The notes under the pieces: generated by a model | What the model saw: only the letters and a program-made list of their open reading frames with translations | Databases searched by the model: none | Told to the model about the DNA's origin: nothing | From: Oscillospiraceae bacterium | GTDB taxonomy: Bacteria; Bacillota; Clostridia; Oscillospirales; CAG-272 | DNA: 64,000 nt | Assembly (NCBI GenBank): GCA_015065365.1 | Contig: SVQL01000001.1 | Coordinates: 2,355 to 66,354 of the forward strand | Reading direction: 5' to 3' | In this document: piece after piece, positions 41-32,320 of the stretch | Layout of the letters: every line of letters begins with the position of its first letter | Position numbering within the stretch: the stretch's first letter is position 1 | Made by a program: the position numbers and the translations under genes

Positions 41-1350
41 TTAATATATTACGATATCCGCTACTACGGGCATATGGTCGGAAAGGTATCTTCCGTTGAG
101 CTTGCTTTCATTGTTGAGAGTAGTAAAATATTCGGTATCGATTCTGTCGCTCGTTACAAAAATATGGTCGAAAATGTAATTTTGGCGTTTAGTTCCTTGC
201 GTTCCGTTGATTGTTCCGCCCAAGTCGCCCTTATTCTTTGCAACTGTTGCCGTTCTGTCGAAGCGATCAAGATTTTCAACGGATTTCAAGGTTTGACTCG
301 TGGGCACCGAGTTAAAGTCACCGACGAGAATAACGGGCAGCCCCTCGCATTTCTTTCCCTCAAGGAACTTATTAAGGTACTGTACCTGCTTGTATCTTCG
401 CCATCGTCGTTGGTCTCGCCTGCTGCGTTTCTGTACGTTACGTGAACGTTAACGAACATAAACTGCTTATGCGTAGCAAGGCTTTCGAGAACTACGTAAG
501 AAAATCCTCTGTAAGAATTAGACTCCTCAATCTTCGACTCAACGAACGGAGTGCTCGTCAAATATTGGAAACCGGAGGAGACCTTCTTGTATTTATCGGC
601 GTTCCAGAATATCATATTCGCCATACCGGTGCCCTTTAAAGCGATACCCTCGTAGCATTCGTAATTAGTCATTGCCGAGAGTATTTTTTCCTTATGCGTA
701 CTCATAGTTTCCTGCGTTCCGAAAACGTCAGGAGCCTGCTCCTTTATAAAGTTTGCAAGTGCCGTAATATCTCTCGGGAGTTCTCCGTTGTCGTCGTAAT
801 ACATATCGTAAAGCACGTTGTACGACATAACCTTAAGACTGTCCTTGGCAAACGCGACCTTTTCATTCTGTTCGACCTTAATTACGGTATCAGCACCTTC
901 GGTAGTAGCCTTAGCGAAAAATGCATCTATTACGCTGCAAAGTCCAACTTTATCCTTAGCCAGAATATATACGTTCTTTCCGTCATAGCCGATCATTCCC
1001 TCATCGCAGGACTCAAAGAACGAATAAATACTTGCGTCGCTACCCTTTTTGTCGATAAATATCTGGTATCCGTCGCCTGCGCTCTTAGTCGTCTCAAGCT
1101 CTATTTCATATATCTCATCCAATTTGATATTAAAATACTCAACGGCATACTCGCTTGCTTGTCCGCTGTAAACCAAGGTATAATCAGTCATCTTGATGCC
1201 GTTAAGCCTAAAGGTCGGCTCTCCCGACTGCGTCATCTGCGCTTCGGTATCGCTCGTTTGCGCGCCGTCTTGATTATTACAAGCAAACAACGAAGGCAAG
1301 AGCATAAGAAACGCCAACACTAAGCTTAAAAATCTAAATTTCCTTTTCAT
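41..1350 (-). pseudogene. EEP (endonuclease/exonuclease/phosphatase) family lipoprotein, interrupted by a -1 frame break
   Basis: Lipobox signal MKRKFRFLSLVLAFLMLLPSLFAC. EEP motifs VMSYNVL, FGTQET and VNVHVTY lie in ORF 286..1350. The remaining motifs GLPVILVGDFNS, FDHIFVT and LSDHMPVV continue only in the -1 frame (ORF 41..307 plus its upstream extension). Collinear with the intact paralogue 29539..30810. Confidence 0.6.
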
Positions 1351-1427
1351 TGAATTTCTCCCCTTTTGATTTAAAAACTATATGATAATCAGCCGCCGTT
1401 TTTCGTATGGCTGATGAATTTTCAATT

Positions 1428-2513
1428 TTATTCCTCGTAGCCGAATCTTTTAACAACGAAATTTTCCGCGCCCAATACGGGAAATACCTTCTCACCCCAC
1501 GGCTTATGCCAATAAAGCGAGCCGCGAAGTCTGTTTTCCGTGTCGCGTACTCCGTACTGAAGCTGGGAAATGGCAGGCTTAAAGCCCACTCCGCATTCAA
1601 AATTCAGTGTGCCCACGAAAACGTTGCACTTTCCTTTTTTGTTTCCGTAAAGCTCTACGTCGGTGGTAGACAAAATTACGGTATTATGCTGGGCTACTAT
1701 ATGATTTATGGTTGATACGTGAGAGCAATCGTGGAAGGTAATTCCTTCCTCACAGTTGTGGATATAAAGGTAATCCGCAACGACGTGCTCTCCCATAACG
1801 AAACCGTACTTAAAGCCCTGTACGGCTACGTTTCGCAAAACGTTATTGTCGTTTTGGTCCTGCGAGGTGATAAGTCCTGCAACGTGGCAGGGATTTTTCT
1901 GAAGCTCCTTACCGATAAAGGTATCTCCGATTTCTTCGTTCAGACAAAACTGAGAATCGCATATATTTATTCGAGATACGTTACCAAGGTTGACAGCTCC
2001 TTGCGTCGGATACATTTTTTCCTTGTCAAGCGCGACCGCAAACTCAAGATTATGTATAGAAAATGATCTCACGCTGAATTTTCCAGCGCAGGAATCTCCT
2101 ATCGGTGCGGACAGAATAGACCAAGGACGCGCCGTGGGGTCGTGCTCCTCGGGGGGATTCCAGTCGGAAAATATTCTCGTATTTGTACATTTTCTGCCAA
2201 ACGTAGTGGGAGAGTAATTTCCGTCGTCAGGTCTTACCTGATAGGGATACAGCATCGTGCAGGGCATTTCCCCCTCAAGTATGATGTTGTGTCTGCCTCG
2301 AGGTATGTACAGCTGAGAGCGCAACGGCTGCCCGTCAAGCTCCTCGATTCCCGGAGATGCTATCCTATATCCACCTTTTGTAAACGGGAATAAAAGCTTG
2401 CCGCCTCCACGCTTTGCAAGAAAATTTATTCCCTCCTGAATAGCGGCGGTATCGTCGGCAACACCGTCACCAACCGCTCCGAAATCTAACACCGAATAAC
2501 CGAATACAGACAT
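1428..2513 (-). CDS. Right-handed beta-helix protein, pectate-lyase-superfamily (Pectate_lyase_3-like) glycosidase/lyase
   Basis: The N-terminus SVLDFGAVGDGVADDTAAIQEGINFLAKRGGGKL matches the characteristic start of this superfamily. No signal peptide. Last-but-one gene of the locus-A operon. Confidence 0.5.
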   Translation of the reverse strand: MSVFGYSVLDFGAVGDGVADDTAAIQEGINFLAKRGGGKLLFPFTKGGYRIASPGIEELDGQPLRSQLYIPRGRHNIILEGEMPCTMLYPYQVRPDDGNYSPTTFGRKCTNTRIFSDWNPPEEHDPTARPWSILSAPIGDSCAGKFSVRSFSIHNLEFAVALDKEKMYPTQGAVNLGNVSRINICDSQFCLNEEIGDTFIGKELQKNPCHVAGLITSQDQNDNNVLRNVAVQGFKYGFVMGEHVVADYLYIHNCEEGITFHDCSHVSTINHIVAQHNTVILSTTDVELYGNKKGKCNVFVGTLNFECGVGFKPAISQLQYGVRDTENRLRGSLYWHKPWGEKVFPVLGAENFVVKRFGYEE

Positions 2514-2615
2514 AGCTCCTCCATTTTAGCCTTCATTTTAGGCTGTTAATAAACTTTGCCAAACAAAAATTTCAACCGTAATCGCCGTCTGCGTTTGGCA
2601 TTTTTAACGACGATA

Positions 2616-2648
2616 CTGCACAAGTCCATCAACGACGGACTTGTGCAG
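2616..2648 (-). terminator. Hairpin CTGCACAAGTCC(9 nt)GGACTTGTGCAG, 14 nt downstream of the SBP stop; weak U-tract
   Basis: 12-bp perfect stem read directly. Near-identical hairpin at 31005..31037. The trailing sequence is not U-rich, so it may be an intercistronic stabiliser rather than a full terminator. Confidence 0.35.
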
Positions 2649-2662
2649 CTGTATAATTTTAA

Positions 2663-4111
2663 TTAGTCTAATGCTTCGATAGAATTAAACAGATTTTCAA
2701 TCTTGTTTTCGGTAGGCGTCTTAACGCCGTTGTACAATCCGGATATATCCTTAGTAGTATTAATGCTTTCAAGCAAAATCTTAGTCTTAAGATTTATCTG
2801 GCTTCCGTATACAAGACCGAAATCGAACACAAGGCTATTGATAACGACGTCTACCATTTCAGCGCAAACCTCGTCGTAGCTGCTCTTTACCTTACAAACG
2901 GTGTTGTAGTAGGTAGTCAGCGTAGTGTCCGAGGACTTCCACGACAAAACCTCTACCATAAACGCGGAGAAGTCAGCGTCTGCCGCGCAGGTAGGAATAC
3001 CGAAGGTCGCGCCGTAGGTATTGTCGTTAGTCGTATAATAGCGTCCCTGCTCTACGTCGTACATAGGATAAGGCAAGGGCGTATAAGAGAACTGTGCGTT
3101 CTCGCCCAAGCTTTCAATGGACGACAGCGAGGAAGCGTAGAAGAACGCTCTGCCGTCAAGGAAGGTATCGTGCGGGTCGTCGTAAGTACCAAACTTATTT
3201 CCACAGAAGGAAAGATCCTCGCTAAAGAGCTTTCTGAGCTCGGCGATACTGTTCATGGAATGCTCGTTAGCAACCTCAACTGACCAATTTTCTTCCTCGT
3301 CGAACGCAACTATCTTATTGTTAAGTCCGCTCCAGAAGGAGATCGGGAATTCCTTACCTCCCGCGACGAGTCCCCAGCTGTCGTCAAGGTCCATCTTGCC
3401 ATCTCCGCCGGGATCGCTCTTCGTATAGATAAGCATCTGCTCTATGGTCCACTGCTTGTCGCGAACCATCTGAACGATATCGGGATGCTGATTTTCAGAA
3501 CCGAGATCTCGGTTGTAGTACAAGGTGTTGATTCTTGCCTTGTCAACGAGTGAGAAGTCACTTACCATGTGGAACAGTCTGCCGCCGACTCTCATCGTCT
3601 CAAGAGTATCGGAGTCGTACCACTCGTTTGAAAAGTCTATATACGATACTGCGTCAAGGTCGTTCATATATCCGCTGGTAATTGCTGTTCCCATATAGTT
3701 GCGCGCCAAGAACGCCAAATCGTAGTCGTAATCGTCAGCGAGTATAACGTTTTTAAGCGCCTCCAGACCGTCGGCATCCTCCGTGTGGCTATCATCAACC
3801 GTAATAGTTACGTTGTAATACTCCTCGATCCAGTTGTTTCTGTGGTAAACGGTATCTGACATTATATCTCCGCCGAGCTCGCCAACAAGCTCAAAATTAG
3901 GCTCGTAGGGGTTGTTCAGAGCGAGAATATTAAAGTTTCTTCCGCCCCAGTCGTAGTGAGGAACGGGATCGGTAGCCGCTTCTTCGACGAGTCCCTGGGT
4001 TTCCGTTTCCTCGGGCTCGTCAACCGTACACGAAACGAAGGTCGTAAGTAAAAGCAACAGTGCAAGAAGCAAGCTGCCTATCTTTAAAAGCTTACTTTTT
4101 AAATTAGTCAT
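2663..4111 (-). CDS. Extracellular solute-binding lipoprotein (sugar-type ABC SBP), orphan
   Basis: Lipobox LLLLLTTFVSC. ~480-aa architecture and motifs (VGGRLFHMVSDFSL...LYYNRDL) typical of Firmicute family-1 SBPs. Its start overlaps the upstream stop by 8 nt (ATGACTAA). No permease or ATPase genes anywhere in the locus. Confidence 0.55.
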   Translation of the reverse strand: MTNLKSKLLKIGSLLLALLLLLTTFVSCTVDEPEETETQGLVEEAATDPVPHYDWGGRNFNILALNNPYEPNFELVGELGGDIMSDTVYHRNNWIEEYYNVTITVDDSHTEDADGLEALKNVILADDYDYDLAFLARNYMGTAITSGYMNDLDAVSYIDFSNEWYDSDTLETMRVGGRLFHMVSDFSLVDKARINTLYYNRDLGSENQHPDIVQMVRDKQWTIEQMLIYTKSDPGGDGKMDLDDSWGLVAGGKEFPISFWSGLNNKIVAFDEEENWSVEVANEHSMNSIAELRKLFSEDLSFCGNKFGTYDDPHDTFLDGRAFFYASSLSSIESLGENAQFSYTPLPYPMYDVEQGRYYTTNDNTYGATFGIPTCAADADFSAFMVEVLSWKSSDTTLTTYYNTVCKVKSSYDEVCAEMVDVVINSLVFDFGLVYGSQINLKTKILLESINTTKDISGLYNGVKTPTENKIENLFNSIEALD

Positions 4112-5879
4112 CTTTTCTTCTCCTTGAGGTTAAACCAACGACGCCTATTGCAGAAGCCATAACCATAGCCGCGCCGCACAGTCCGATAGAGCTGCCGCAG
4201 CCGCCCTTAGGCGCCTCGGTCTCGGGAGCGGGAGCAGCCTCGGTGTCCTTATTATCCTCTACCAATACGGGAGGCTTGTTTTGGGGCTTGGAGGATCCGC
4301 CGTCATCATTTTCGTTCTCGTTGCCGTCGTCCTCGGGAATGTCCATAGGAGGAGCCGCTTCATTTTCAGCAGCTATGAGAGCAACACCCTTGTATACGTT
4401 AAGGTCACTTACGGTTACTTCGGTCACGAAATACGAATAGAAGTAAATTCCAAGATAATCTCTAAAGAATACGGAAGGATCTTCAACAGGGCTGTACTGC
4501 TCGATAAGAAGCCATCTGCCCTCGGAGTCCTTTACGTACAAAGCGATCGTGGTATTATCGCCGTTGATCTCCATAGCGTACTCCTGAACGGAAGGATAGT
4601 TCTCCGTTCCGCCGTCGTATCCGGGAACGTAATCGCTAGTAAGCGTAGAGTAATCAACGTGAGAGTATCCGCTTACCGCGTTACCGTTTCTCTGCGGTCT
4701 TCCCTTGTTAGCATAGAAGTATCCGCCGTAGACACCGTCGATGAGCAATCCAAGCGGAACGTTGCTCGTACGGGTCATAGTAAACTTAACGGTGTAAGAA
4801 TATCCTGCGCCGAGAGGAAGTCCCTCGATGTCTGCGCCCCAAGCGGCGTTTTTCTTTTCGGTAACGCCTTCCTCGCCCGTAGGTCTTTCAGTAACCCTAA
4901 TGGTTACCTTGCCTGCGTCCTCGGAATCAACGTTTGCGGTGATATTATCGCAAGGCCACTCCCAACCTGCGTTTGCAGCAGCGGCTGCGTTGCTGGGCTT
5001 GAAGCAATCGTCAGCTCCGCTGAAGTCAGCAGAGTAAAGAAGTCCGCCCTCTTCAACTCCGTCCCACAAAGCCGTTGAGATTTCGGGTTCTTCGCCTTCA
5101 CCCTCGCCTTCACCCTCGCCACCTGCGGGAGGAGTAACGGCAGCATTTTCATTAGCTACAACCGATATGCCCTTGTATACGCATACGTCGCTAACGGTTG
5201 CTTCAGTTACGTAATACGAATAGAAATATAATCCAAGACGGTCTCTGAAAAATTCGGGCGGATCCTCCTTGGGAGTACCATCGTCTATCTTGCTCCATTT
5301 GCCGTCCTCGCCCTTTACGTACAAAGCAAACGTCGTATCGTCACCGTTTATCTCAATAACGTACTCCTGCTCTGTCTTTTCGGTATAATTAACCCAGCTA
5401 TGTCCTGTCAATGCGCTACCGTTTCTTTGAATTCGAGCCTTGTGTGCGTAGAAATAACCGCCGTGAGTGCCGTCAAACAGCAATCCGATAGGTTTTGCGT
5501 TATCTGCGCAGGAAACCTTGAACTTAATCGTATAGGAATATCCCTCGCCAAGAGGAAGATCGTCTACGTCCGCGCCCCAAGCAGTATTGTTCTGCGGTGT
5601 AACCTTAAAAGTCACTTTGCCGGAGTCCTCAGGATCAACCGTTGCGGTTATATTATCGCAAGCCCAGTTGTAGCCTGCGTTTGCGGCAGCAGTTTCGTTG
5701 CTGGGCTTGTAGCAGTCACCAGCGCCGCTAAAGTCAGCCTCGTAGAGAAGCGCTCCGTCCGCAGCAGCAGCGTAAATATCGTTCGTAGCCACGTCTGCAA
5801 ACGTCGCGATTGCCATGAAGGGTACGGTCATCATCAAGACCAATACCAATGCCAAAATTTTTTTCATTGTATTTTTCAT
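4104..5879 (-). CDS. Secreted protein with two lectin-like repeats and a C-terminal GGCG-helix-RRRKDD anchor/sorting signal
   Basis: Signal peptide MKNTMKKILALVLVLMMTVPFMAIATFA. Two ~230-aa internal repeats (LLYEADFSGAGDCYKPSN... and LLYSADFSGADDCFKPSN...), each ending VSDxxVYKG, joined by a (GE)n linker. The tail is KGGCGSSIGLCGAAMVMASAIGVVGLTSRRRKDD. Confidence 0.75.
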   Translation of the reverse strand: MKNTMKKILALVLVLMMTVPFMAIATFADVATNDIYAAAADGALLYEADFSGAGDCYKPSNETAAANAGYNWACDNITATVDPEDSGKVTFKVTPQNNTAWGADVDDLPLGEGYSYTIKFKVSCADNAKPIGLLFDGTHGGYFYAHKARIQRNGSALTGHSWVNYTEKTEQEYVIEINGDDTTFALYVKGEDGKWSKIDDGTPKEDPPEFFRDRLGLYFYSYYVTEATVSDVCVYKGISVVANENAAVTPPAGGEGEGEGEGEEPEISTALWDGVEEGGLLYSADFSGADDCFKPSNAAAAANAGWEWPCDNITANVDSEDAGKVTIRVTERPTGEEGVTEKKNAAWGADIEGLPLGAGYSYTVKFTMTRTSNVPLGLLIDGVYGGYFYANKGRPQRNGNAVSGYSHVDYSTLTSDYVPGYDGGTENYPSVQEYAMEINGDNTTIALYVKDSEGRWLLIEQYSPVEDPSVFFRDYLGIYFYSYFVTEVTVSDLNVYKGVALIAAENEAAPPMDIPEDDGNENENDDGGSSKPQNKPPVLVEDNKDTEAAPAPETEAPKGGCGSSIGLCGAAMVMASAIGVVGLTSRRRKDD

Positions 5880-5921
5880 AAAAAGCCTCCTTGTTTTTTT
5901 GAAAAAAATTTTTAATGCTTT

Positions 5922-6047
5922 TTAGAATGGGTCTTCCGCCCAGTTATCGAGAGTGTCGCTTCCGAATATGACAGAAAATACCATGATGTCCTTCGTGTCA
6001 AGATTTACGACGCTGAGCTCGGGAACGACGTATTTTTTATTTTTCAT
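5922..6047 (-). CDS. Conserved 41-aa micro-protein (MKNKKYVVPELSVVNLDTKDIMVFSVIFGSDTLDNWAEDPF), unknown function
   Basis: ATG at 6047 with AGGAGG 9 nt upstream; TAA at 5922-5924. The paralogue at 32321..32449 has 33/41 identical residues, and half of the codon differences are synonymous. Too short for the supplied ORF track. Confidence 0.6.
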   Translation of the reverse strand: MKNKKYVVPELSVVNLDTKDIMVFSVIFGSDTLDNWAEDPF

Positions 6048-6065
6048 AATACTGTTCCTCCTTAA

Positions 6066-9000: not shown

Positions 9001-10433
9001 TCAATATCATTAACCAATCCCTTGTATATCAGTATATCCGAAATCTCATTCCAGGAAACGCCGCTTACTTTTCTAGCATAAACTCTGCAACTCAATTCAT
9101 CATTAAAAGATATGCCGCTATAGGTTTCTACCTCTACGTACGTGCCTTCGGCATTCTTAACGTAAAGAGTCATCGTTCCGGTAACGGTTCCGTCTTCAGG
9201 GTCAGTTCCGGTATCAGGGTCAATCTCAACGGCAAATGAATTCATCTCGTCATAACCGTTCGCTGCCTTATCTATCCAGTTGACCGTTCCCGTAGTGTTT
9301 TTGGTATTCCAACTGTACAAATAGGTAAGGCCATCGCTGGCGACAAGAACCGTTTTACTGTTATCCACCTGGATGCCTACTCCGGTTTTTCCGTCTTCGA
9401 ATCTCGCGTCAAAGGTGACCGTGTACGTTTCTCCGTTCGCGAGAGAAAAGCGTTCCGCAGATACAAGTCCGCCCCACATAGCACGACCATTTTTGGCACC
9501 AAAAACAGATTTAGACGTGTTATGTATCTCCTGCTTTAGCGATCTTCCGCTTGCGGAAACGTATACATAGGAATTCCAGTTGTTGTGGTCAGCATAATCG
9601 TCGCTCCAGGACGTATCGTTGAAGTTGATAGCCTTAAGCAGTTCTCCGTTCTCTGCCTCTGCGTACAGCTCAGAAGGAGTCATTTCAACAGCGTCGGGAG
9701 TAACGACCGTTCCGTTTACGGTAACCTCACCGATATCGATGCAGCCGTCCTTGCTGGGTGCGGTTACGGCGATAGCGAAATACTTTGCCGTGACACCCTG
9801 ACCTTCACCGTCACGAAGATCTATCTTATGACCAACTCTGAGGAAGCCGTCAACGGTCTTGGAAGCGTATGCGTCGTCACCCTCAGCGGGGAAGTTCGCG
9901 CCCGCGTTCGTTCCGTCTCCGCACATTTCGCTGAACTCCTTCAAAGCAGTCCAGGTCTCGCCGTCCGTGCTCACGAGGATTTCATATCCGTCGTTTATAC
10001 CCCAGCTTGAAGCAGGATTGCTCCATCTTGCAGCCTGATCGGCAGTATATCCGTTTCCGGCAATCCAAATAGTTACGTCGTCAAGCTCACTCGTGCCGTT
10101 AAGCTCGAATACGGCGTATCCGTAGTACAAGCACATTTCCGAATCTACGAAAAGACGCGTATTTGCAGCGGATATCGCATCCGACTCGTAGTACGGACGA
10201 GCGCTCCTTCCGTCGGCACTCTCATCGTAAGGGTCTCCGTCAATCATTCCCGCAACGGAGCCGTACGAAACGTGCAAATCCCAGTCGTCGTCGTATTTTG
10301 CAAACATCTTCACGTGCTTAATGCTCGCGGGAGTAATTTCAGCATCCTCCGCACTTGCGGGCAAAACTATGATTGGCATTGCCATCATCAAGACCAATAC
10401 CAAGCATAAAAGCTTCTTTGCAATCTTTTTCAT
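6066..10433 (-). CDS. Secreted 1455-aa multidomain protein: F5/8-type-C-like domain, 3 lectin-like repeats, beta-sandwich domain, C-terminal EEP phosphoesterase
   Basis: Start at MKKIAKKLLCLVLVLMMAMPIIVLPASA, with AGGAG 6 nt upstream (ORF-track start 10508 rejected). YEILVSTDGETWTAL is a discoidin-like motif. Three repeats each end xIYKGL. GASVRLSVPTGIRF marks the beta-sandwich domain. EEP motifs: VLSYNLE, VGIQED, VNTHLHYG, TGDMNAD, FDHVIY, PSDHLPV. Confidence 0.85.
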   Translation of the reverse strand: MKKIAKKLLCLVLVLMMAMPIIVLPASAEDAEITPASIKHVKMFAKYDDDWDLHVSYGSVAGMIDGDPYDESADGRSARPYYESDAISAANTRLFVDSEMCLYYGYAVFELNGTSELDDVTIWIAGNGYTADQAARWSNPASSWGINDGYEILVSTDGETWTALKEFSEMCGDGTNAGANFPAEGDDAYASKTVDGFLRVGHKIDLRDGEGQGVTAKYFAIAVTAPSKDGCIDIGEVTVNGTVVTPDAVEMTPSELYAEAENGELLKAINFNDTSWSDDYADHNNWNSYVYVSASGRSLKQEIHNTSKSVFGAKNGRAMWGGLVSAERFSLANGETYTVTFDARFEDGKTGVGIQVDNSKTVLVASDGLTYLYSWNTKNTTGTVNWIDKAANGYDEMNSFAVEIDPDTGTDPEDGTVTGTMTLYVKNAEGTYVEVETYSGISFNDELSCRVYARKVSGVSWNEISDILIYKGLVNDIETGTVDRAAEYDNAEVGDLLNTVDFNSLEWLGYFATDSNRGADVVVSKDGSSARLAVLGSSSKRAMWGGLKSAYPLMEVVGTAEDPDDPSATIDVYGNYRKYTVIFDADFGSTTGGKTLVGIQVDGSYTITVDGNGNTKLWDWNTELSSSDAEKYPTEQWDYDGLWSPKEGTQKFAVEVDPENGVMSLYIVDLDGTFNEVARYEELSFGTELSCRIYTRSYTTGSDVWTYVSNVQIYKGLPISVKEDRAAEYANANEGDLLHTVNFADRFNWHQGFYDSNNNGAEAVISEDGSSARITLIDGKAYNRAIWGGLDSGYPLREVLNPDEVEAGAAPVYKNNNYTLVFDLEFGNTAYNKYGLGIQVDGNQTLVIDGFGCNSLWEWNTQKVEKSDEGEDKWNYSTDVAKAEKHTFAVEVDPEYNTLTLYVMDADGSFNKVRAMTYEGSALKDTLKCRIYTRKLSGTSDADSWTEVSDVKIYKGLKFGKVLNVSGASVRLSVPTGIRFKSEFSKPVIDSLRETYGEDNVKLGMIITPTDYLTNNGVDFEMAALDACGAITGAKYVRIDATTIHEDEDPASYTINCALVNVKAGNYNREFSARAFIEVNGEIYKYADFDLESNSRSIDEVARAAYGDVSTESNEKYNNSVVIAGTTVYSPYDADELKTLTGFFTPADGENEEKQSYINVLSYNLEYKGDDVWEGRNPANAVQTILDANPDVVGIQEDTEDWNDYLAVLKNNGYANLAGNRQYNKYTNKFGNGWAFNDIYYKTEKFTLVSSGWDSFKNLADDYTIEGYEGTDMSIDVQGDAEGWFSDEDIGRTFSYAVLKDKTTGEVILFVNTHLHYGDGTSSSDSECDDDHLLREYQSRLLAAWLAEKAAQYPTQILTGDMNADVSSAKGKVVLNGYSDSGLSFARDEALIAGDTGGTLDGTDYTVRNKYVFDHVIYRNAEALEYTVINNKVDEVDGVMRYPSDHLPVYAKFVY

Positions 10434-10531
10434 GTTTTTCTCCTTTTTTGTTTTGTTTTTATTTTTAATAGCGTATATTTTTACGCCAATTAAATTAAAT
10501 ATAATCACTTAATATCGTTATTACCAAATAT

Positions 10532-11170
10532 TTACTCGTCTACGGTAATAGTACAGTACAACGCATAGTGGTCTGAAAGATCTGTTCCCGCAAGCGTAAA
10601 ATCGGTTACGGTAACACCCTTATATACGATATTATCGAGAGAGGAACCACTCTCGTACGTTGGCATTTTATCATCAGTGTTTCCGAGAGTGTAGCCCGCG
10701 TCGGTAAAGAGTTCAAACTCAGAGAATGAGTTAATGTTCCAGTCACCGAGAAGAACAACGTGCTCATATTGCTCACAATACTCAATAAGCTCTTTTAACT
10801 GATTGTTTATAATGTTCTTCGAGCCAAATGCCAGATGCGTGCTGACAAGCTTAACCGTCGTGCCGTTTATCACAAGGTCGGTGGTAACAAAATAATAATC
10901 GGCACCCTCAGGGGAATATTTTCCGAGCTTACCCAAATCCTTATTACACTCAAACTCGTGAACTTCAGGCTCGGATATCTCTATTCTGGAATATACCGCG
11001 TTACAGCTGTAATTGCGCTGAGGTCCCTCGTAAACGGTATCGTATCCCTTAAAAATTGTATCCTTTGCAAGATAGTTATTCTTTGTGAACTTTTTGCTGT
11101 ACTCGTTCAAGAACATAATATCTGCATCAATGGCATTATTGATATAGTCGCTGAAATCGGCGTTCTTCAT
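10532..11170 (-). CDS. EEP catalytic core lacking its first strand (downstream half of a split EEP lipoprotein gene)
   Basis: Motifs DADIMFLNEY, VSTHLAFG, LGDWNI, LDNIVY and LSDHYAL. The ATG overlaps the upstream TGA (ATGA at 11167-11170). The N-terminal WN strand is encoded by the preceding ORF in another frame. Confidence 0.6.
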   Translation of the reverse strand: MKNADFSDYINNAIDADIMFLNEYSKKFTKNNYLAKDTIFKGYDTVYEGPQRNYSCNAVYSRIEISEPEVHEFECNKDLGKLGKYSPEGADYYFVTTDLVINGTTVKLVSTHLAFGSKNIINNQLKELIEYCEQYEHVVLLGDWNINSFSEFELFTDAGYTLGNTDDKMPTYESGSSLDNIVYKGVTVTDFTLAGTDLSDHYALYCTITVDE

Positions 11171-12219
11171 TGCAAACTGAGTGTCCTGATCGTGGAATAA
11201 TCCTTATGCCCGATCGAAAAGTGACCGATGTTCCACGTAGCTATCCTTACGGAATTGGGATTTTCAGGTCCGTACGACGCCTTGGTAAACTTGATTTCAG
11301 AGGGAAGATACGTTGTTGCGGAATTATTGTTGTAAACATAGAGGTATCTTGCATTATCGGGAATTCTTACGGTAATACTATCCTCGTTTACACTTACCAC
11401 GTTAGTATATCCCGCGGCATAGCAGGGAGTAAGATCATAGCAAAGCTCGTCACCCATAAATGCATAGGTAATAGCCTTACCATTCGCATTTTTCTTCATG
11501 GTAACAGTATTGAAAGTAGTACCCTCAAGCTCGATTATCGCGCCTTTCATCGACGATGATTTGGCGTAAACGTTTGAGCTTGTAACGTAACCGTCAAGAA
11601 CCTCTATTTGTTCAAGCGGGTATACGCACTCCGCAGCGCTTTCGTTTATGAGCGGATTGACATAGCCGTCAATGAAGGTTACGGACTTAGGAATATGAAT
11701 ATCCTTTTTGCTGCTATAGTAAACATAGAGATACTTTGCGTCATCGGGGATCTTTAGCGTTGCTTTTGTGGAAATATCCCATACGCAATGGGTATATCCG
11801 GTTGCATACTTGGGAGTCGTATTCAGGGCAAGCTCACCCGCAAGAAACGTATAGCCAAGCGAAAATCCGCTGTCGTTTTTCTCAAGCTGAACGTGAGAAT
11901 AGTCGATCCCGTCAAGGTCGATCACGGCACCGTAATAGCCGTCTGCCTTTTTGTACTTATTTTCCTTATCGGCAATCGTGCCCGGAAGCTTAACAATATC
12001 CTCAACAGAATAAGAAAACGTTCTGATATAATCCATCTCGGATTCATCCTTATCGTCTTTAGGAGCGGTATCTGAACTGTTGGTATCCGTGTCACCGCTT
12101 CCGCTTTCACCTATGTTAGGTGTAGGGGTTTCGTTTTCCGTGTTTCTACATGAGCTTAGACAGGCAAGTGTCGAAATCAAAATAACAGCCACTAAAATTT
12201 TTGCAATAAGGTTTTTCAT
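11167..12219 (-). CDS. Lipoprotein with two ~120-aa internal repeats, ending in the first EEP strand (VRIATWNIGHFS)
   Basis: Lipobox ISTLACLSSC. Internal duplication (…IPDDAKYLYVYYSS… and …IPDNARYLYVYNNN…). The C-terminus IATWNIGHF is the EEP N-terminal Mg-binding strand, and the rest of the domain is in 10532..11170. Confidence 0.6.
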   Translation of the reverse strand: MKNLIAKILVAVILISTLACLSSCRNTENETPTPNIGESGSGDTDTNSSDTAPKDDKDESEMDYIRTFSYSVEDIVKLPGTIADKENKYKKADGYYGAVIDLDGIDYSHVQLEKNDSGFSLGYTFLAGELALNTTPKYATGYTHCVWDISTKATLKIPDDAKYLYVYYSSKKDIHIPKSVTFIDGYVNPLINESAAECVYPLEQIEVLDGYVTSSNVYAKSSSMKGAIIELEGTTFNTVTMKKNANGKAITYAFMGDELCYDLTPCYAAGYTNVVSVNEDSITVRIPDNARYLYVYNNNSATTYLPSEIKFTKASYGPENPNSVRIATWNIGHFSIGHKDYSTIRTLSLQ

Positions 12220-12342
12220 AATCTCTCCTTCGAACTTTAAGTATACGGATTATAGATATAAAGTCTAAGCTTCCGTCAAAAGTAAAAACATATTTGAAGG
12301 ATTTATCAAAGACGGAGTGCACTATGTCCGCTATTATAATTC

Positions 12343-12371
12343 ATTATACCATGGTTCGGTTTTGCTTTCAA
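12343..12371 (-). promoter_or_regulatory. Candidate sigma-A promoter of the locus-A operon (TTGAAA-17-TATAAT, TG-extended -10)
   Basis: On the minus strand, TTGAAA is at 12371-12366, followed by a 17-nt spacer and TGGTATAAT with -10 at 12348-12343. About 120 nt upstream of ATG 12219. Confidence 0.5.
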
Positions 12372-12465
12372 TAAACGCAGGTTAAATGTAGGCAACAAAA
12401 AGTGATATTTGCCATAGAAATTATTTCCTTCTATTTGTTTATATTCACCATTTTATACTATGCTA

Positions 12466-12494
12466 TTGACAAATAGCGAATAGGGTTGTATAAT
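12466..12494 (+). promoter_or_regulatory. Candidate sigma-A promoter of the AraC-type regulator (TTGACA-17-TATAAT)
   Basis: Perfect consensus hexamers with a 17-nt spacer, 67 nt before ATG 12561. Same arrangement as 38553..38581. Confidence 0.6.
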
Positions 12495-12560
12495 TAACTA
12501 CGGTAATATAGTACAATTTACCAAAAAAACACATTTTTAGAAAAGCGGGGATAATGCAAA

Positions 12561-13514
12561 ATGAAGTTTACTCATTGCGATTATAAGTATAAAAGCGCAT
12601 CCACAAACGCCACTAAGGGCAATATACATTCCCGAAAGATGCGAGTCGCAAGCAGCCGCGCCGACTTAAAGCAGGATACCGAATACTACGCATCCTGGAT
12701 ATGCATTTACGCAACGGACAAGGATATAACCGAGTTTAATCTCGGAATTGACTATTCTTATCCCAATCAAACGATAAGAGACAGATGCGAGGGCAGACTT
12801 TTCCTTAATTTTATCGTAAAGGGTAAAGGAACTATTAACGGCGAGCCGTTTTCCGCGGGGCAATTCTTTTATACACGTCCTCTGCAAAAGCATACTATAC
12901 AGTCCGATCCCGACGATCCTTACGTCTCCGTTTGGATATACGTCCAGGGTGAGTACGCCAATTACGTAGAAAACGAATTGATTAAAAAAAGCAACAGTAC
13001 GACTATGACGTTAAACAATTATACCGACGTATTGGAGCTTACGAAAACCTTTCTTTTTACAATCAATCTCGCCGAAACGTCAACCTCTTATCTCAAGCAC
13101 CTGATAAATATCTACCTTTCTTATATATCTCCCAATAACGAGCTGGATTATCCCGAGATATTTGCTACTCAAAAAATAACGCGCCTCGTTTACGCCGCAA
13201 AAACGTATATCAGCAAAAACCTAAAAACAGTTACCGTTGCCGATCTCGCGGCTAATCAGCGCTATAACGTAAAATATTTTTCAAGGCTCTTCGCCTCTGC
13301 CACGGGCATGAAGCCCGCCGAGTATATAACCGACTGCAGAATTGAATGGGCGAAAAACTCGCTTGAGCACTCCGATCTCTCCGTCTCGGAAATATCCGAA
13401 GCAATCGGCTACGAGCACAGAAACGGCTTTGCCACCGCTTTCAAAAAAAAATACGGCTGCTCCCCTACTGAATACAGAAGAAAAACTAAAGGAAGCAACA
13501 AGGTTAGCGAATAA
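12561..13514 (+). CDS. AraC/XylS-family transcriptional regulator (cupin-like sensor + HTH)
   Basis: C-terminal HTH region YFSRLFASATGMKPAEYITDCRIEWAKNSLEHSDLSVSEISEAIGYEHRNGFATAFKKKYGCSPTEYRR. Divergent from the operon. Paralogue at 38648..39592. Confidence 0.85.
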   Translation: MKFTHCDYKYKSASTNATKGNIHSRKMRVASSRADLKQDTEYYASWICIYATDKDITEFNLGIDYSYPNQTIRDRCEGRLFLNFIVKGKGTINGEPFSAGQFFYTRPLQKHTIQSDPDDPYVSVWIYVQGEYANYVENELIKKSNSTTMTLNNYTDVLELTKTFLFTINLAETSTSYLKHLINIYLSYISPNNELDYPEIFATQKITRLVYAAKTYISKNLKTVTVADLAANQRYNVKYFSRLFASATGMKPAEYITDCRIEWAKNSLEHSDLSVSEISEAIGYEHRNGFATAFKKKYGCSPTEYRRKTKGSNKVSE

Positions 13515-13579
13515 CTCTACCTTGACTTATACCACCTCGCACAAGCAATGTACATTGGTTTTAAAAAAGCCGAAAGCAC

Positions 13580-13608
13580 TTGAAAATCGTTGCGCTCTGT
13601 GATATAAT
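13580..13608 (+). promoter_or_regulatory. Candidate promoter TTGAAA-17-TATAAT for the leaderless EEP gene
   Basis: Hexamers read directly at 13580-13585 and 13603-13608. AGGAGGAG RBS precedes ATG 13650. Confidence 0.45.
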
Positions 13609-13649
13609 TAATGTCGTTGTCATATACACCGTCAGGAGGAGCTTATAAA

Positions 13650-14459
13650 ATGAAAAACCAGTCGACAGCTACCAAAATCGATTGCTTAAAGATAATGTCC
13701 TACAATGTCTTGCTTGACTTTTACAAGGAAGGACGCGATCCCAGCTTTATCGTGGAGCTTCCCGCAAGCATCAGAGAGCAGGCGCCCGATATCCTCGGCA
13801 CGCAAGAGACCGTCACCGATATGCACGACCAATGCTTAAGCCTCTTAGAAGGATACTCCTGCTTCAAGGGCGAGGCATATACGGAAAACAACGGCCGCGG
13901 CAACTACGTTTACTGGCGAGCAGATAAATTCAATGTGCTTGAAGCAGGACATCGCTATATGAGCGATACTCCGACCGTGCGCTCAAAGTATGAAAAATCA
14001 AGAGAGTACCGCGGTTTTAACTACCTGTTTTTAGAAAGCTGCGAAACGGGAAACCGTTTTCTGTTTCTCAATCTCCACGCGGATTACCGTGCCGACGAGG
14101 ACACCCGAGTTCTTCAGCTTAAGACCGTAAACGCCTTTTTGAATGAAGAAAGATGGCAGGGGCTCCCGGCAATTATCGTGGGAGATTTCAACTCTACTGC
14201 GCATCAGGCAAGTATTTCCACCTTCTTGGCTGACAACCCGCGCCTTGCCATAACCTCCGAGGTTGCCGAGGTAACGGGCGACACCGGCGCTACTCTCGTA
14301 GGCGGATTTACAAGTAAGATCCCCTACGTGTTCGATTATATTTTCGTCACCAAGGACAAGATCAACACAAAGTATTATTCCGACATCGATAATATAAAGA
14401 ACGGTAAATATCCCTCCGATCATCTTCCCATAGTCGCGGAAATAGAATTATTCAACTGA
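13650..14459 (+). CDS. EEP family protein without signal peptide
   Basis: Start chosen at MKNQSTATK after the AGGAGG RBS. Motifs IMSYNVL, LGTQET, LNLHADY, VGDFNST, FDYIFVT and PSDHLPIV. Confidence 0.8.
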   Translation: MKNQSTATKIDCLKIMSYNVLLDFYKEGRDPSFIVELPASIREQAPDILGTQETVTDMHDQCLSLLEGYSCFKGEAYTENNGRGNYVYWRADKFNVLEAGHRYMSDTPTVRSKYEKSREYRGFNYLFLESCETGNRFLFLNLHADYRADEDTRVLQLKTVNAFLNEERWQGLPAIIVGDFNSTAHQASISTFLADNPRLAITSEVAEVTGDTGATLVGGFTSKIPYVFDYIFVTKDKINTKYYSDIDNIKNGKYPSDHLPIVAEIELFN

Positions 14460-14473
14460 TCAAATGATAAAAC

Positions 14474-14512
14474 AAAAATCCATCGGGGCGCTATGCGCCC
14501 GATGGATTTTTT
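14474..14512. terminator. Bidirectional rho-independent terminator between convergent genes
   Basis: AAAAATCCATCGGGGCGC tat GCGCCCGATGGATTTTT. GC-rich stem with one bulge, flanked by A-run and T-run. Confidence 0.7.
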
Positions 14513-29520: not shown

Positions 29521-29538
29521 AATACATCTCCAAAACAA

Positions 29539-30810: not shown

Positions 30811-30837
30811 TTTTTTCTCCTGTTTTGTATTTTAGAT

Positions 30838-32274: not shown

Positions 32275-32320
32275 AAAAAACCTCCTTAAAATTTTATTGA
32301 AAAAAATTTGTTTACTGTTT

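Follow-up and report, generated by a model that had tools for sequence, protein, structure and literature searches.

An AraC-controlled, PUL-like locus in an uncultured Oscillospiraceae bacterium that may harvest a phosphate-containing glycan

Results

Gene content and transcription signals of locus A

The window analyzed here, a stretch of 64,000 nt (64 kb), comes from an uncultured rumen/gut Oscillospiraceae/Ruminococcaceae bacterium that carries repeated AraC-controlled gene modules. One of these, locus A (41-14459), has four catalytic domains of the EEP (endonuclease/exonuclease/phosphatase) type along with two lectin-like-repeat proteins, an SBP-like lipoprotein, a beta-helix protein, a sORF of 41 aa and, transcribed divergently, an AraC regulator. 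The minus-strand ORFs that an earlier note had listed are all present where it placed them, and its picture of a co-oriented gene unit with a divergent AraC gene is borne out by conservation of the kit across related contigs.

41..1350, minus: A1/A0, lipoprotein (lipobox LFAC) that combines an N-terminal domain of ~150 aa with a BT3783-like EEP domain
1428..2513, minus: A2, right-handed beta-helix protein of the cytoplasm, lacking a signal peptide
2535..2562, minus: possible internal promoter upstream of A2 (10/12 sigma-70 consensus; a match to consensus only)
2663..4111, minus: A3, SBP-like lipoprotein (lipobox FVSC), distantly related to sugar ABC-transporter binding proteins
4104..5879, minus: A4, with signal peptide, two ConA/legume-lectin-like repeats, acidic linker, 'GCGS' motif, TM helix and RRRKDD
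4107..4205, minus: tripartite tail of A4 (K-G-G-C-G-S-S-I-G, hydrophobic helix, RRRKDD)
5922..6047, minus: 41-aa sORF, MKNKKYVVPELSVVNLDTKDIMVFSVIFGSDTLDNWAEDPF
6066..10433, minus: A5, ~1455-aa secreted protein (EEP Pfam match, repeat alignment, C-terminal structure model)
6069-6953, minus: EEP domain of A5
6999-7556, minus: beta-sandwich domain of A5
9009-9671, 8274-8993 and 7554-8276, minus: three lectin-like repeats of A5 (repeat alignment)
9669-10433, minus: N-terminal domain of A5
10532..12219, minus: A7/A6, lipoprotein in which two beta-sandwich-like domains of ~130 aa accompany a divergent EEP domain (EEP Pfam match on A6)
12343..12371, minus: operon promoter-like site (TTGAAA-17-TATAAT with TG extension, 11/12)
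12466..12494, plus: promoter-like site for A8 (TTGACA-17-TATAAT, 12/12)
12561..13514, plus: A8, AraC-family regulator with a cupin-type ligand-binding domain (Pfam)
13580..13608, plus: promoter-like site before A9 (11/12 with TG)
13580..14500, plus: A9, cytoplasmic BT3783-like EEP protein without signal peptide, including promoter-like site and terminator-like hairpin
14486-14500, plus: terminator-like hairpin of A9

Promoter-like sites lie where the earlier note put the operon promoter and the perfect consensus promoter of the AraC gene. Promoter-like sites overall are not in excess (26 observed against a shuffled expectation of 21.5), and we regard only the best three, all intergenic, as notable; the candidate internal site lies within the 149-nt gap between A3 and A2. 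The divergent regulator proposed earlier is confirmed in A8 by matches to HTH_18 (E 8e-22) and HTH_AraC (E 1.1e-17), with AraC_binding at E 4e-5. Behind it, as had also been proposed, lies a leaderless EEP gene, A9, with its own promoter-like site; its likely start at 13650 gives a 269-aa product, the length also called in other assemblies. Export signals (lipobox or signal peptide) are present on A1, A3, A4, A5 and A7 and absent from A2 and A9.

EEP domains

The claim of four EEP catalytic domains within 14 kb holds in a PF03372 search, which matched A5 (31.8 bits; ORF 6066-10508, EEP at aa 1186-1471), A6 (10532-11170; 37.8 bits) and A9 (13611-14459; 51.2 bits, E 1.7e-13), with A1 (286-1350; 22.6 bits) falling slightly below the cut-off because the gene is truncated. 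The loss of catalytic residues had been named as a possible refutation; the N/E/H/D-N/D-H motifs are kept in all four domains, and the catalytic residues are invariant in 36 homologues of the A5-type EEP. A model of the C-terminal 504 aa of A5 (pLDDT 86) has as its top PDB fold match 3MPR/4C1R, the protein BT3783 (E 2e-20, TM 0.77), followed by PDE12, CNOT6L, nocturnin and TDP2, which are nucleases or RNA/DNA phosphodiesterases. A9 likewise matches the mannosyl-6-phosphatase 4C1R (E 5.9e-14).

BT3783, the closest characterized relative of both locus-A EEP types, is a mannose-6-phosphatase from the yeast-mannan PUL of Bacteroides, acting on phosphorylated mannan/N-glycan (PMC4978465). Because this relative is a phosphomonoesterase, the cleavage of specifically a phosphodiester, as the earlier note had it, is only a candidate activity. 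One EEP subfamily of Clostridia is a proven sugar-specific phosphodiesterase (PMC10704324).

Lectin-like repeats, C-terminal tail and micropeptide

The ORF of A5 reaches a GTG at 10508, with the ATG at 10433 as the likely start. Three lectin-like repeats and an EEP domain were found in it as described, but the 'discoidin-like' label for its N-terminal domain is tentative: F5/8C matches were sub-threshold (E 0.065) and a PDB sequence search gave no match. The repeats were called lectin-like from the outset, and structural models agree: the AlphaFold2 model of A4 (pLDDT 80-92 across both repeat domains) has a ConA/legume-lectin-like jelly-roll fold, for which Foldseek returned BoNT Hc, the peanut and Lotus lectins, the lectin wings of V. 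cholerae sialidase and CBM22, a likeness at the level of fold only (TM 0.5-0.58, ~10% identity). The ConA-like fold also serves protein binding, which counts against a glycan-binding reading.

At this fold level, the ~220-aa repeat appears in the models as a new module, of which A5 and A4 together hold five copies. The family is tiny, with 179 clusters among 1.84 billion representatives, and only 11 homologues of A4 were found. Among 51 long repeat-family proteins, the fusion partners were EEP (15), MBL (2), metallophosphatase/PAP (1) and GDSL (1), with no GH. The fused enzymes are thus almost always phosphoesterases, drawn from three unrelated superfamilies (EEP, MBL and metallophosphatase), and this preference for phosphoesterases over GHs gives independent support to the idea of binding something and cleaving a phosphate ester.

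The C-terminal signal noted on A4 is the tail 'GGCGSSIG-TM-RRRKDD', which recurs in B2 of locus B (below), in the related loci L001, L005, L008 and L009 and in 56 of 150 repeat-family representatives. Its similarity to the MYXO-CTERM, PGF-CTERM and LPXTG models is sub-threshold, and it is an uncurated, putative C-terminal anchor. The 41-aa sORF, also predicted earlier, has an AGGAGG ribosome-binding site, a paralogue in locus B and family members in eight related loci (L001, L002, L005, L006, L008, L010, L015 and L016), while L020 has a 60-aa ORF with N-terminal similarity to it. Members of the family come after the gene for the large repeat/EEP protein, and the next gene is in most loci the GCGS-tailed repeat gene. 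Copies A and B differ by 8 synonymous and 8 non-synonymous codon changes, and no NCBIfam family was matched. We count both the GCGS tail and this conserved micropeptide as components of the system.

Binding lipoprotein and beta-helix protein

The translational coupling proposed for A4 and A3 is supported by an 8-nt overlap of the A4 stop with the A3 start, an arrangement kept in L001, L005 and L016. Homologues of A3 give weak PF13416 matches, and its profile matches the arabino-oligosaccharide-binding protein AraN in the PDB (E 3e-7). The earlier note called A3 an orphan, and a permease gene was found neither in the 64-kb window nor in the related loci; with no permease beside any SBP-like gene, the uptake step is a gap in the model presented below.

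The beta-helix assignment of A2 stands on an N-terminal match to PF12708 (E 3.8e-11). Its sequence matches in the PDB (mannuronan epimerases, GH55 and GH28) are confined to the N-terminal cap, and this N-terminus is of the pectate-lyase/GH28 beta-helix type. A2 is the most conserved protein of the set, with 82-95% identity across loci as opposed to 36-68% for the surface proteins, as expected if the surface parts track variable substrates.

Two interrupted genes

A1/A0 reads as two ORFs (286-1350 and 41-307) owing to a 1-nt gap. Independent assemblies from this strain are 99.93% identical to the region, with that single gap in 1401 nt, and encode an intact 436-aa protein. The frameshift reported in this last EEP lipoprotein is missing from them and probably reflects a rare variant or an error of assembly. 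The split at 11167 (about 11170) in A7/A6 is genuine. It corresponds to a 1-nt deletion relative to an intact 557-aa homologue, intact homologues of this length being present in L001 and L016, and its presence in 17 independently assembled contigs shows that it is real; A7/A6 is a probable pseudogene, inactivated in the natural population. A7 has a weak NADase_transloc/F5-8C match.

Locus B and related loci

The duplication reported at 29.5-39.6 kb is real, and in an all-vs-all BLASTP comparison it spans 28.2-39.6 kb. This paralogous locus B is supported by Pfam, BLASTP, the sORF and the tail.

28186..39592, minus (AraC B6 plus): locus B
28186-29538, minus: GH39 (Pfam)
29539-30810, minus: B1, lipoprotein-EEP
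31132-32358, minus: B2, GCGS-tailed repeat protein
32321-32449, minus: sORF
32464-33300, minus: B3, EEP
33306-36830, minus: B4, four-repeat protein
36867-38342, minus: B5, SBP-like
38588-39592, plus: B6, divergent AraC

Identities between the loci are 59% for the AraC pair A8/B6, 45% for the A5 C-terminus/B3, 37% for A1/B1, 32% for A5/B4 and 25% for A3/B5. A third module is found immediately beyond the left edge of the window. Some ten related contigs, every one of them from uncultured Clostridia, carry the kit again, and in seven (L001, L002, L005, L010, L015, L016 and L020) it is whole, sORF included; since the clade is narrow, shared ancestry and not selection may account for part of this synteny. 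In sister loci the repeat protein and the SBP-like protein are retained, usually together with AraC, and the enzymes are exchanged; these comprise GH2 with two MBL-fold proteins, two GH39, GH36, GH78, GH92, GDSL/CE2, a six-hairpin GH, PHP and GDPD. The earlier statement that no glycoside hydrolase is present was too strong: GH39 abuts locus B, the A2 N-terminus is of GH28 type, and relatives of the wider system add GH78, GH92, GH2 and GH36. Phosphate-related flanking genes include PHP/PHP_C (L001, L005, L008 and L020) and GDPD (L016), and L005 is flanked by an MFS protein weakly like PgtP/UhpC/GlpT. Two proteins of 499 and 505 aa gave no Pfam or PDB match.

Discussion

Alternative functions

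The EEP, MBL, metallophosphatase and GDSL families also fit nucleic-acid or phospholipid substrates. Were phospho(sphingo)lipid head groups harvested, the lectin-like modules would bind the glycan head of plant, fungal or protozoan glycosyl-inositol-phosphoceramides or similar glycolipids, and the EEPs would act like neutral sphingomyelinase or Isc1-type phospholipase C to free a phosphorylated glycan head for uptake. Each of the repeat's fusion partners belongs to a family with lipid-head-group phosphodiesterases or lipases (nSMase, NAPE-PLD, acid SMase and GDSL lipases). Sphingomyelinase C (7CNE) appears among the A5 EEP fold matches, but at rank 49, well below BT3783, PDE12, CNOT6L and TDP2, and sphingomyelinases are absent from the EEP sequence matches. 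Although a GlcNAc-PDase EEP subfamily groups close to sphingomyelinases (PMC10704324) and L011 is adjoined by GFO_IDH_MocA and AP_endonuc_2, families that include inositol-catabolic enzymes, no ceramidase or lipid-handling gene was found, and we consider this reading unlikely. Slightly less likely again is the scavenging of extracellular nucleic acids, with surface EEPs as DNases, RNases or nucleotide phosphodiesterases digesting eDNA/RNA and binding proteins holding the polymer or capturing nucleotides or nucleosides. Nucleases abound in the EEP superfamily (fold matches to PDE12, CNOT6L, nocturnin and TDP2 at E 1e-17 to 1e-14), the best sequence matches of the A5 EEP are CCR4-type proteins, MBL and metallophosphatase partners include nucleases and nucleotidases, and PHP phosphoesterases lie nearby. 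Both EEP types nevertheless match the glycan phosphatase BT3783 best, the ExeM/NucH extracellular nuclease model reached only E 0.027, and the binding modules have a lectin fold. The context is one of carbohydrates: A3 is a relative of sugar-type SBPs, the AraC regulator has a cupin domain, sister loci carry GHs and GDSL, and genes for sugar kinases, isomerases and aldolases are close by. The locus holds no nucleoside transporter, phosphorylase or nucleotidase.

That the system is self-directed, trimming or turning over the cell's own teichoic-acid-like or capsular polymers with the lectin-like proteins as wall-associated scaffolds, strikes us as improbable. All exported parts are cell-attached (lipoproteins or a C-terminal anchor), the surface parts evolve fast like surface antigens, and a capsule-related PGA_cap gene lies in the window (40727-42022). 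Ligand-dependent AraC control and many paralogous modules with different GHs and esterases are, however, typical of nutrient loci, linkage to catabolic kinase, isomerase, aldolase and dehydratase genes is tight, and no glycosyltransferase, flippase or polymerase gene was found in or beside the locus. Least probable is that the frameshifts mark an eroding cluster and that what looks like a system is only its relic. Interruptions affect two of the four EEP genes in this sequence, and that of A7/A6 is fixed across 17 contigs. The A1/A0 interruption, however, is missing from independent assemblies, no other gene is broken, motifs are conserved and promoter-like sites strong, several species have intact orthologous loci, and the sORF changes synonymously with its peptide conserved.

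A PUL-like module for phosphorylated glycans

We favor the reading, with a probability of roughly 0.55, that locus A belongs to a set of several paralogous PUL-like modules under AraC control, harvesting a phosphate-containing glycan or glycoconjugate, and as such a Gram-positive system comparable to PULs. The regulator would sense an internal breakdown product through its cupin ligand domain and drive the operon, and the lectin-like modules of secreted A5 and membrane-anchored A4 would bind the polymer. Surface EEPs (A5 and the lipoproteins A1 and A7/A6, the latter inactive in this strain) would cleave phosphate esters, either removing phospho-substituents or breaking phosphodiester bridges, and A3, coupled to A4, would capture the released product. 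Uptake could proceed through a transporter encoded outside the locus, either a shared ABC permease or, in relatives, the adjacent sugar-phosphate/anion-type MFS. Cytoplasmic A9, the conserved A2 and neighboring PHP phosphatases would then complete the degradation, its products passing to the sugar-catabolic enzymes encoded alongside. From the accessory enzymes in sister loci, we infer that the leading candidate substrates are phosphodiester-linked or phospho-decorated wall or extracellular polysaccharides of other microbes, such as teichoic-acid-like polymers or phosphomannan.

Organization of locus A and its paralogue

All ORFs that the earlier note had placed in locus A (41-14459) were found at their positions, and an exact-sequence look-up identified the NCBI proteins of the window as MBE6706009-MBE6706036 (locus tags E7577_00025 onward), from a MAG recorded as 'Ruminococcaceae bacterium' or 'Oscillospiraceae bacterium'. 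Every locus protein looked up carries the NCBI label 'hypothetical protein', the AraC regulator excepted, and the small ORF (sORF) is absent from the annotation of the record. The rest of the window holds housekeeping and sporulation genes (RecO, Era, YbeY, PhoH, YqfD, MutS2) and many sugar-catabolic genes, and the organism is therefore a saccharolytic spore-forming Firmicute. Related contigs from uncultured Clostridia are numbered L001-L020 here; judged from sample names alone (yak, Tibetan cattle and buffalo-type labels), they probably derive from ruminant gut metagenomes.

The divergent regulator gene, A8, does encode an AraC protein with a cupin-type AraC_binding domain (Pfam), and the promoter-like sites proposed for it and for the operon were both recovered.

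Promoter-like sites in locus A (matches to the sigma-70 consensus)
12371..12343, minus strand: operon promoter-like site, 11/12, TG extension
12466..12494, plus strand: site upstream of the AraC gene, 12/12
13580..13608, plus strand: site upstream of A9 (cytoplasmic EEP), 11/12 with TG
2562..2535, minus strand: possible internal promoter upstream of A2 (beta-helix), 10/12, suggestive

The best three sigma-70-like sites within 14.7 kb all lie in intergenic DNA, and the total of weaker promoter-like matches is no higher than in shuffled sequence. The coupling of A4, a two-repeat protein with a C-terminal GCGS tail, to A3, a lipoprotein resembling solute-binding proteins (SBPs), is seen as an 8-nt overlap that is also kept in L001, L005 and L016, and a strong ribosome-binding site is present at the 41-aa sORF (5922-6047). 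No RNA families or riboswitches were detected in the whole window with Rfam, and a repeat search for an AraC operator found that the four divergent intergenic regions share only short AT-rich repeats at chance level.

The duplication at locus B (28186-39592) was borne out and is more complete than first described, with a GH39 gene, a lipoprotein-EEP (B1), a GCGS-tailed repeat protein (B2), an sORF, an EEP protein (B3), a four-repeat protein (B4), an SBP-like lipoprotein (B5) and a divergent AraC gene (B6). The large repeat protein and its EEP domain are two adjacent ORFs (B4, B3) in locus B, whereas they form one fused gene (A5) in locus A. In longer same-strain assemblies a third module lies directly left of the window, comprising genes for AraC, an SBP-like protein and a protein of 754 aa together with a 60-aa sORF-like gene; in L020 this DNA, adjoining window position 1, spans 10578-17050, and on leaving the window it holds first a PHP_C protein and then the module. 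The window therefore cuts through a larger module array.

The earlier note had reported two interrupted lipoprotein-EEP genes, A7/A6 and A1/A0, each of which proved to be a one-base deletion relative to intact homologues, and only one of them stood. The A7/A6 split is real, recurring in 17 independently assembled contigs from different samples, and on these sequences it is a genuine population-wide inactivation; the lipoprotein part, A7, retains only the first catalytic Asn, and the A6 remainder has no signal peptide. In contrast, at least four independent assemblies lack the A1/A0 gap and carry the gene whole, for a protein of 436 aa; the window differs from them by one gap in 1401 nt (99.93% identity), and the interruption most probably reflects a mistake in assembly or an uncommon variant.

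EEP domains

The claim of four EEP (endonuclease/exonuclease/phosphatase) domains in locus A holds, with A5, A6 and A9 recognized by Pfam and A1 just under threshold.

EEP domains of locus A (Pfam)
286-1350: A1, lipoprotein-EEP
A5, aa 1186-1471 of the 1480-aa ORF: large secreted protein
10532-11170: A6, remainder of the split lipoprotein-EEP
13611-14459: A9, cytoplasmic EEP

Scores against PF03372 (cut-off 24.5 bits) are 31.8 for A5, 37.8 for A6, 51.2 for A9, 48.9 for B1 and 60.3 for B3; A1 reaches 22.6 bits, below the cut-off because the 1-nt gap truncates it. The catalytic and metal-binding residues (the first-strand N, the E of 'QE', the H/D of 'HL(H/D)', D-x-N and S-D-H), are readable in A1+A0, A5, A7+A6 and A9 as SYN/WN, QE(T/D)/NE, (H)xH/HL, GD(F/M/W)N and SDH. 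In an alignment of 36 A5-type sequences, N213, E246, H363, D410, D463, D494 and H495 are invariant and N412 is nearly so.

The best sequence match of A9 in the PDB is 4C1R, the mannosyl-6-phosphatase BT3783 (E 5.9e-14), and A1 and B1 are related to A9. By sequence, the A5 EEP has only weak, CCR4-type matches. The last 504 residues of A5 gave a confident AlphaFold2 model (pLDDT 86), whose EEP domain is closest to 3MPR/4C1R, again BT3783 (E 2e-20 to 2e-18, TM 0.74-0.77, 22-23% identity), followed in the fold ranking by PDE12, CNOT6L, nocturnin and TDP2, with sphingomyelinase much lower. The A7/A6-type EEP in its intact form has no sequence relative in the PDB. With identity to BT3783 at only about 22%, specificity (monoester or diester, and which sugar) is therefore not transferable.

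BT3783 and BT2630 are EEP-fold phosphatases of the yeast-mannan PULs of Bacteroides thetaiotaomicron (Cuskin et al. 2015, PMC4978465), and BT3783 removes phosphate from phosphorylated yeast mannan/N-glycan inside its PUL (PMC4978465). The window EEPs may be monoesterases or diesterases: the nearest characterised relative is a monoesterase, and sugar-specific diesterases also occur in the EEP fold. The latter form the GlcNAc-PDase subfamily of secreted EEPs, mostly from gut Clostridia (Fossa et al. 2023, PMC10704324), which includes GlcNAc-PDase itself (GenBank OQ439827 ORF27), MBE6669927, HCG67795 and NLD61619, has phosphocholine or phosphoethanolamine on GlcNAc-6 as its proven substrate, and shares its chemistry with the MBL-fold Pce and the metallophosphatase MPPE1 (PMC10704324).

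Lectin-like repeats and their fusion partners

Ten repeat units of about 220 aa, from A5, A4, B4 and B2, align with one another and share G-x-L-L...F, WGG, Y-T-x-x-F, Q-x-Y-A-I-E, L-Y-V...D-G-x-W and V-S-x-x-x-V-Y-K-G. No sequence match to the repeats was found in Pfam, NCBIfam or, using a repeat profile, the PDB. The predicted structure of A4 contains two well-predicted domains (pLDDT 80-92 in both), which Foldseek matched with probability 1.0 to BoNT Hc, legume lectins (TM 0.49-0.58), Vibrio sialidase lectin wings, galectins and CBM22, and which also match laminin G at fold level. Comparison of this jelly-roll model with solved structures thus shows the description 'lectin-like' to have been right at the level of the fold, and the repeats are candidate carbohydrate-binding modules, although the fold alone is no proof of sugar binding. 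The discoidin-like assignment of the A5 N-terminus fared less well: PF00754 (E 0.065) and PF22633 (E 0.086) both fall far below cut-off, and the domain has no sequence match in the PDB.

An exhaustive profile search of 1.84 billion representatives retrieved just 179 clusters, and the repeat family is therefore very small. Among its 51 long members, fusion partners are EEP (15), the MBL fold (2), a metallophosphatase with a purple-acid-phosphatase N-domain (1) and GDSL (1); glycoside hydrolase fusions number 0 of 51. No independent evidence speaks more strongly for a phosphate ester on the target than the joining of one binding module to three unrelated phosphoesterase folds.

The SBP-like lipoprotein

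For A3, 45 homologues could be detected, every one of them in metagenomes or Clostridia MAGs. A3 itself has no Pfam match, some homologues carry PF13416 or PF01547, and a profile of the family weakly matches the binding proteins of sugar ABC importers (AraN, E 3e-7; maltodextrin-binding protein, E 2e-4). A scan of 185,579 species genomes, built on 14 closer SBP sequences because the 24-sequence alignment had no stretch conserved enough, placed the family in only three 'Eubacteriales' MAG species; a JGI metagenome scan with the SBP profile returned one short locus only, and the co-occurrence analysis rested on exact-protein contig look-ups.

As had been claimed, there is no ABC permease: neither BPD_transp nor ABC_tran was found in any ORF of at least 150 aa in the 64-kb window. 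Likewise, no permease or ATPase gene lies beside any of the more than 12 SBP-like genes examined in the window and in L001-L003, L005-L012, L015-L017 and L020.

SBP-like lipoproteins of about 480-500 aa without a permease, often adjoining AraC
window 2663-4111
window 36867-38342
L020 13055-14563

L003 carries three SBP-like copies, paired with a sulfatase, a SASA esterase and DUF4838, and L017 carries two.

The GCGS tail and the micropeptide

The C-terminal tail of A4 consists of a low-complexity acidic/Thr/Pro linker, G-C-(G/A)-(S/G) with an invariant Cys, about 20 hydrophobic residues and (K/R)(K/R)K(K/E)(E/D). It is present in A4, B2, the matching proteins of L001, L005, L008 and L009, and 56 of 150 repeat-family representatives.

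GCGS tail copies in the window
4107-4205, minus strand
31135-31230, minus strand

The layout of motif, helix and basic cluster at the extreme C-terminus of one protein family is that of the LPXTG/sortase, MYXO-CTERM, PGF-CTERM/archaeosortase and GlyGly-CTERM/rhombosortase signals. Unlike these curated signals, the tail matched no model above threshold; its sub-threshold NCBIfam matches (E 0.007-0.9) include an ArtA-dependent PGF-CTERM-type S-layer glycoprotein tail (E 0.007) and the tail of a MYXO-CTERM-anchored family (E 0.03), with LPXTG and NPXTG matches weaker than both. No sortase, rhomboid, exosortase or CPBP gene was found in the window. Two readings are plausible: a new sorting or lipidation signal of Firmicutes, or nothing more than a tail anchor.

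A small HMM detected the sORF in both window loci, in L002 and in the contigs L001 to L016 listed here; the L020 ORF is added to the list for its similar N-terminal half.

Micropeptide (sORF) family, 41-60 aa
window 5922-6047, minus strand
window 32321-32449, minus strand
L001 7457-7591
L005 8041-8169
L006 5772-5918
L008 1602-1760
L010 18290-18427
L015 9813-9986
L016 9518-9646
L020 16868-17050

The large repeat/EEP gene always lies immediately ahead of it, and in most loci the GCGS-tailed repeat gene is the next one. The family consensus is K-(E/K)-Y-(V/I)-x-P-x-(L/M)-x-V-...-(S/T)-D-(V/I)-(I/M)-...-D-N-W-x-x-D-x-F, of which the N-terminal half is constant (K-x-Y-x-x-P-x-L-x-V...D-V-I) and the C-terminal half is variable, being mostly ...D-N-W-x-x-D-x-F and in one case Gly-rich; the 60-aa ORF of the third module (L020) shares the N-terminal half alone. 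The two window copies are about 80% identical, as against 30-45% for the flanking proteins, and differ by 8 synonymous and 8 non-synonymous codons, which is consistent with purifying selection on the sORF as a peptide. No known NCBIfam family matched it. Its constant and variable halves recall the leader/core organisation of RiPP precursors. Nevertheless, none of the loci examined contains a radical-SAM, cyclase, lanthipeptide or RRE family, nor was any NCBIfam peptide family matched, and the RiPP reading was set aside because no modifying enzyme lies nearby.

Sister loci and flanking genes

The AraC gene beside the module is divergent in loci A and B, and divergent or co-oriented in L001, L005, L009, L010, L015 and L020. 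In L001, L002 and L016 it stands beside a gene set comprising EEP557 (an intact 557-aa homologue of A7/A6), the large protein (fused or split), the sORF, the repeat protein with its transmembrane tail, the SBP-like protein, the beta-helix protein and the lipoprotein-EEP, followed by PHP phosphatases or a GDPD glycerophosphodiesterase. The order in L010 is AraC, SBP, repeat protein, beta-helix, EEP, large protein and sORF. In L012 the domains of A5 are divided between two proteins, one with the N-domain, repeat and a GCGS tail and the other with repeat and EEP; the two sit among MFS, GDSL, GH92 and GH39 genes and the galactonate-dehydratase/PfkB/aldolase block also found in the window.

Elsewhere the SBP-like and repeat proteins are kept and the enzymes are swapped: for GH2 and two MBL lipoproteins in L006, two GH39, GH36 and GDSL in L009, GH78, GH39 and GDSL in L015, and GDSL/CE2, PHP and a six-hairpin GH in L008. 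In locus A the only candidate for a glycoside hydrolase is the beta-helix protein A2, through its cap match; GH39 abuts locus B, and GH78, GH92, GH2 and GH36 occur in sister loci. By gene content, the sister loci behave as a family of substrate-specific nutrient-acquisition modules, of which loci A and B are the phosphoesterase-rich variants.

A2 (1428-2513) has no signal peptide, and its N-terminal cap alone (PF12708) matches the pectate-lyase/GH28/GH55/epimerase superfamily. No other component is as well conserved: A2 is 82-95% identical across loci in which the SBP reaches 49-61%, the repeat proteins 42-47% and the large protein 36-54%. Between genomes (the window against L001, L005, L010 and L016), the A7/A6-type EEP and the beta-helix protein are 83-95% identical, and the AraC, SBP-like, repeat and large EEP proteins only 36-68%; in the near-conspecific L005, most genes are 90-95% identical and the large secreted protein only 68%. 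In this pattern, surface parts that evolve fast or recombine stand beside a conserved cytoplasmic chemistry, and the mosaic points to an exchange of cassettes, or to diversifying selection acting on surface and regulatory components.

Between loci A and B, a catabolic block (16005-28000, minus strand) encodes a galactonate dehydratase (equivalog-level match), a PfkB kinase, a KDPG-type aldolase, a PHP/CehA-like hydrolase, a xylulokinase-like FGGY kinase, an SftI/AraA-like isomerase, a glycerate kinase, an archaeal-type TIM, a CBS-less KpsF/GutQ-like SIS isomerase, YjbQ and the membrane protein YgjV; in L012, EEP and GH39 genes once more accompany part of this block. To the right of locus B (39728-48181) are an EamA transporter, a PGA_cap capsule-synthesis-type protein, an M20 peptidase, a 505-aa protein, a GDSL esterase with an SsfX3-like N-domain and a GH36 alpha-galactosidase; the GDSL and GH36 pair also flanks the GH39 module of L009. 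The 505-aa protein has a 499-aa paralogue (cytoplasmic, 52% identical via L012), and such proteins recur beside modules and the FGGY kinase.

Proteins of about 500 aa
window 22504-24003, minus strand
window 43210-44727, minus strand
L001 15209-16750
L008 10052-11545
L012 5779-7152

Neither window protein has a match in Pfam, NCBIfam or the PDB; a ceramidase assignment suggested by an N-terminal motif was dropped for want of a usable PDB sequence match. The pair may represent a catabolic enzyme of the pathway that has so far escaped recognition.

Discussion

Gut and rumen biomass is rich in phosphate-containing glycans, among them teichoic acids, phosphopolysaccharides of walls and capsules, yeast phosphomannan, glycans modified with phosphocholine or phosphoethanolamine, and glycosyl-inositol-phospholipids. 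To our knowledge, almost nothing is known of how Firmicutes break down phosphate-bridged or phosphate-decorated glycans. The gene content suggests that locus A is a PUL-like glycan-utilisation module with several uncurated components. A toxin/immunity or defence role for the EEPs was set aside in view of their catabolic surroundings and of their being lipoproteins or cytoplasmic enzymes under AraC control.

In a utilisation module of this kind, AraC would control expression, lectin-like modules on secreted and membrane-anchored proteins would catch the polymer, EEP domains would cleave phosphate esters at the surface, and the product would be handed to the SBP-derived lipoprotein. Uptake would fall to a transporter encoded elsewhere or, in relatives, to an adjacent MFS protein that weakly resembles PgtP/UhpC/GlpT, with cytoplasmic finishing by A9, A2 and PHP enzymes. 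The glycosidases of sister loci point to rhamnose, mannose, galactose and xylose-type sugars, and together with the acyl-esterases, GDPD and PHP enzymes they suggest phosphate-bearing decorated heteropolysaccharides; the most plausible substrate class would be microbial wall or extracellular polymers, or phosphomannan.

Known precedents are the EEP phosphatases of Bacteroides mannan PULs, the sugar phosphodiesterases among Clostridial EEPs, and the PULs of Gram-positive bacteria. Locus A resembles the BT3783/BT2630 systems in encoding an EEP-fold Mg-dependent enzyme within a regulated glycan-utilisation locus, and the GH92 gene beside the A5-type EEP in L012 mirrors the GH92 and phosphatase pairing described there (PMC4978465). 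It differs in having a Gram-positive host, no SusC/SusD, and four EEP copies, one fused to three lectin-like repeats and two being lipoproteins with extra N-terminal domains. The superfamilies of the GlcNAc-PDase chemistry (EEP, MBL, metallophosphatase) are the same three that are fused here to the lectin-like repeat, whereas GlcNAc-PDase-type enzymes, compared by description, consist of a single domain, are 219-357 aa long and come with no published locus context. With Gram-positive PULs, which combine a regulator, an ABC transporter with its SBP and glycoside hydrolases, the locus family has in common an AraC-type regulator transcribed divergently, a lipoprotein that here is SBP-like, secreted enzymes of several domains that carry binding modules, catabolic neighbours and many paralogous modules with swapped enzymes. 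In contrast to them, it has no ABC permease or ATPase, phosphoesterases dominate over glycoside hydrolases, and the constant micropeptide gene and the GCGS-tailed lectin-like protein have no counterpart in described loci. We found no published description of a core of orphan SBP-like lipoprotein, GCGS-tailed lectin-like protein, micropeptide and AraC, nor of the lectin-like family or its systematic fusion to phosphoesterases.

We give about one chance in four to the fullest reading, that this is a new Gram-positive surface apparatus for other microbes' phosphodiester-linked glycopolymers (teichoic acids, phospho-polysaccharide wall polymers, phosphomannan) built from four uncurated parts, namely a lectin-like module recruiting phosphoesterases of three superfamilies, an SBP-derived surface binder departed from ABC transport, a Cys-containing 'GCGS-CTERM' sorting/anchoring signal and an obligatory leader-like micropeptide. 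The finding is real and coherent, within one narrow clade of uncultured bacteria; everything past fold and family assignment, the whole of its function included, is inferred. The locus family nevertheless offers candidate enzymes for phosphoglycan chemistry (lectin-tethered EEP, MBL and metallophosphatase proteins), a new family resembling carbohydrate-binding modules, SBP-like proteins that consistently stand apart from permeases, what may be a new signal for surface anchoring and a conserved micropeptide, and its phosphoesterases could serve as glyco-analytical tools, as GlcNAc-PDase does.
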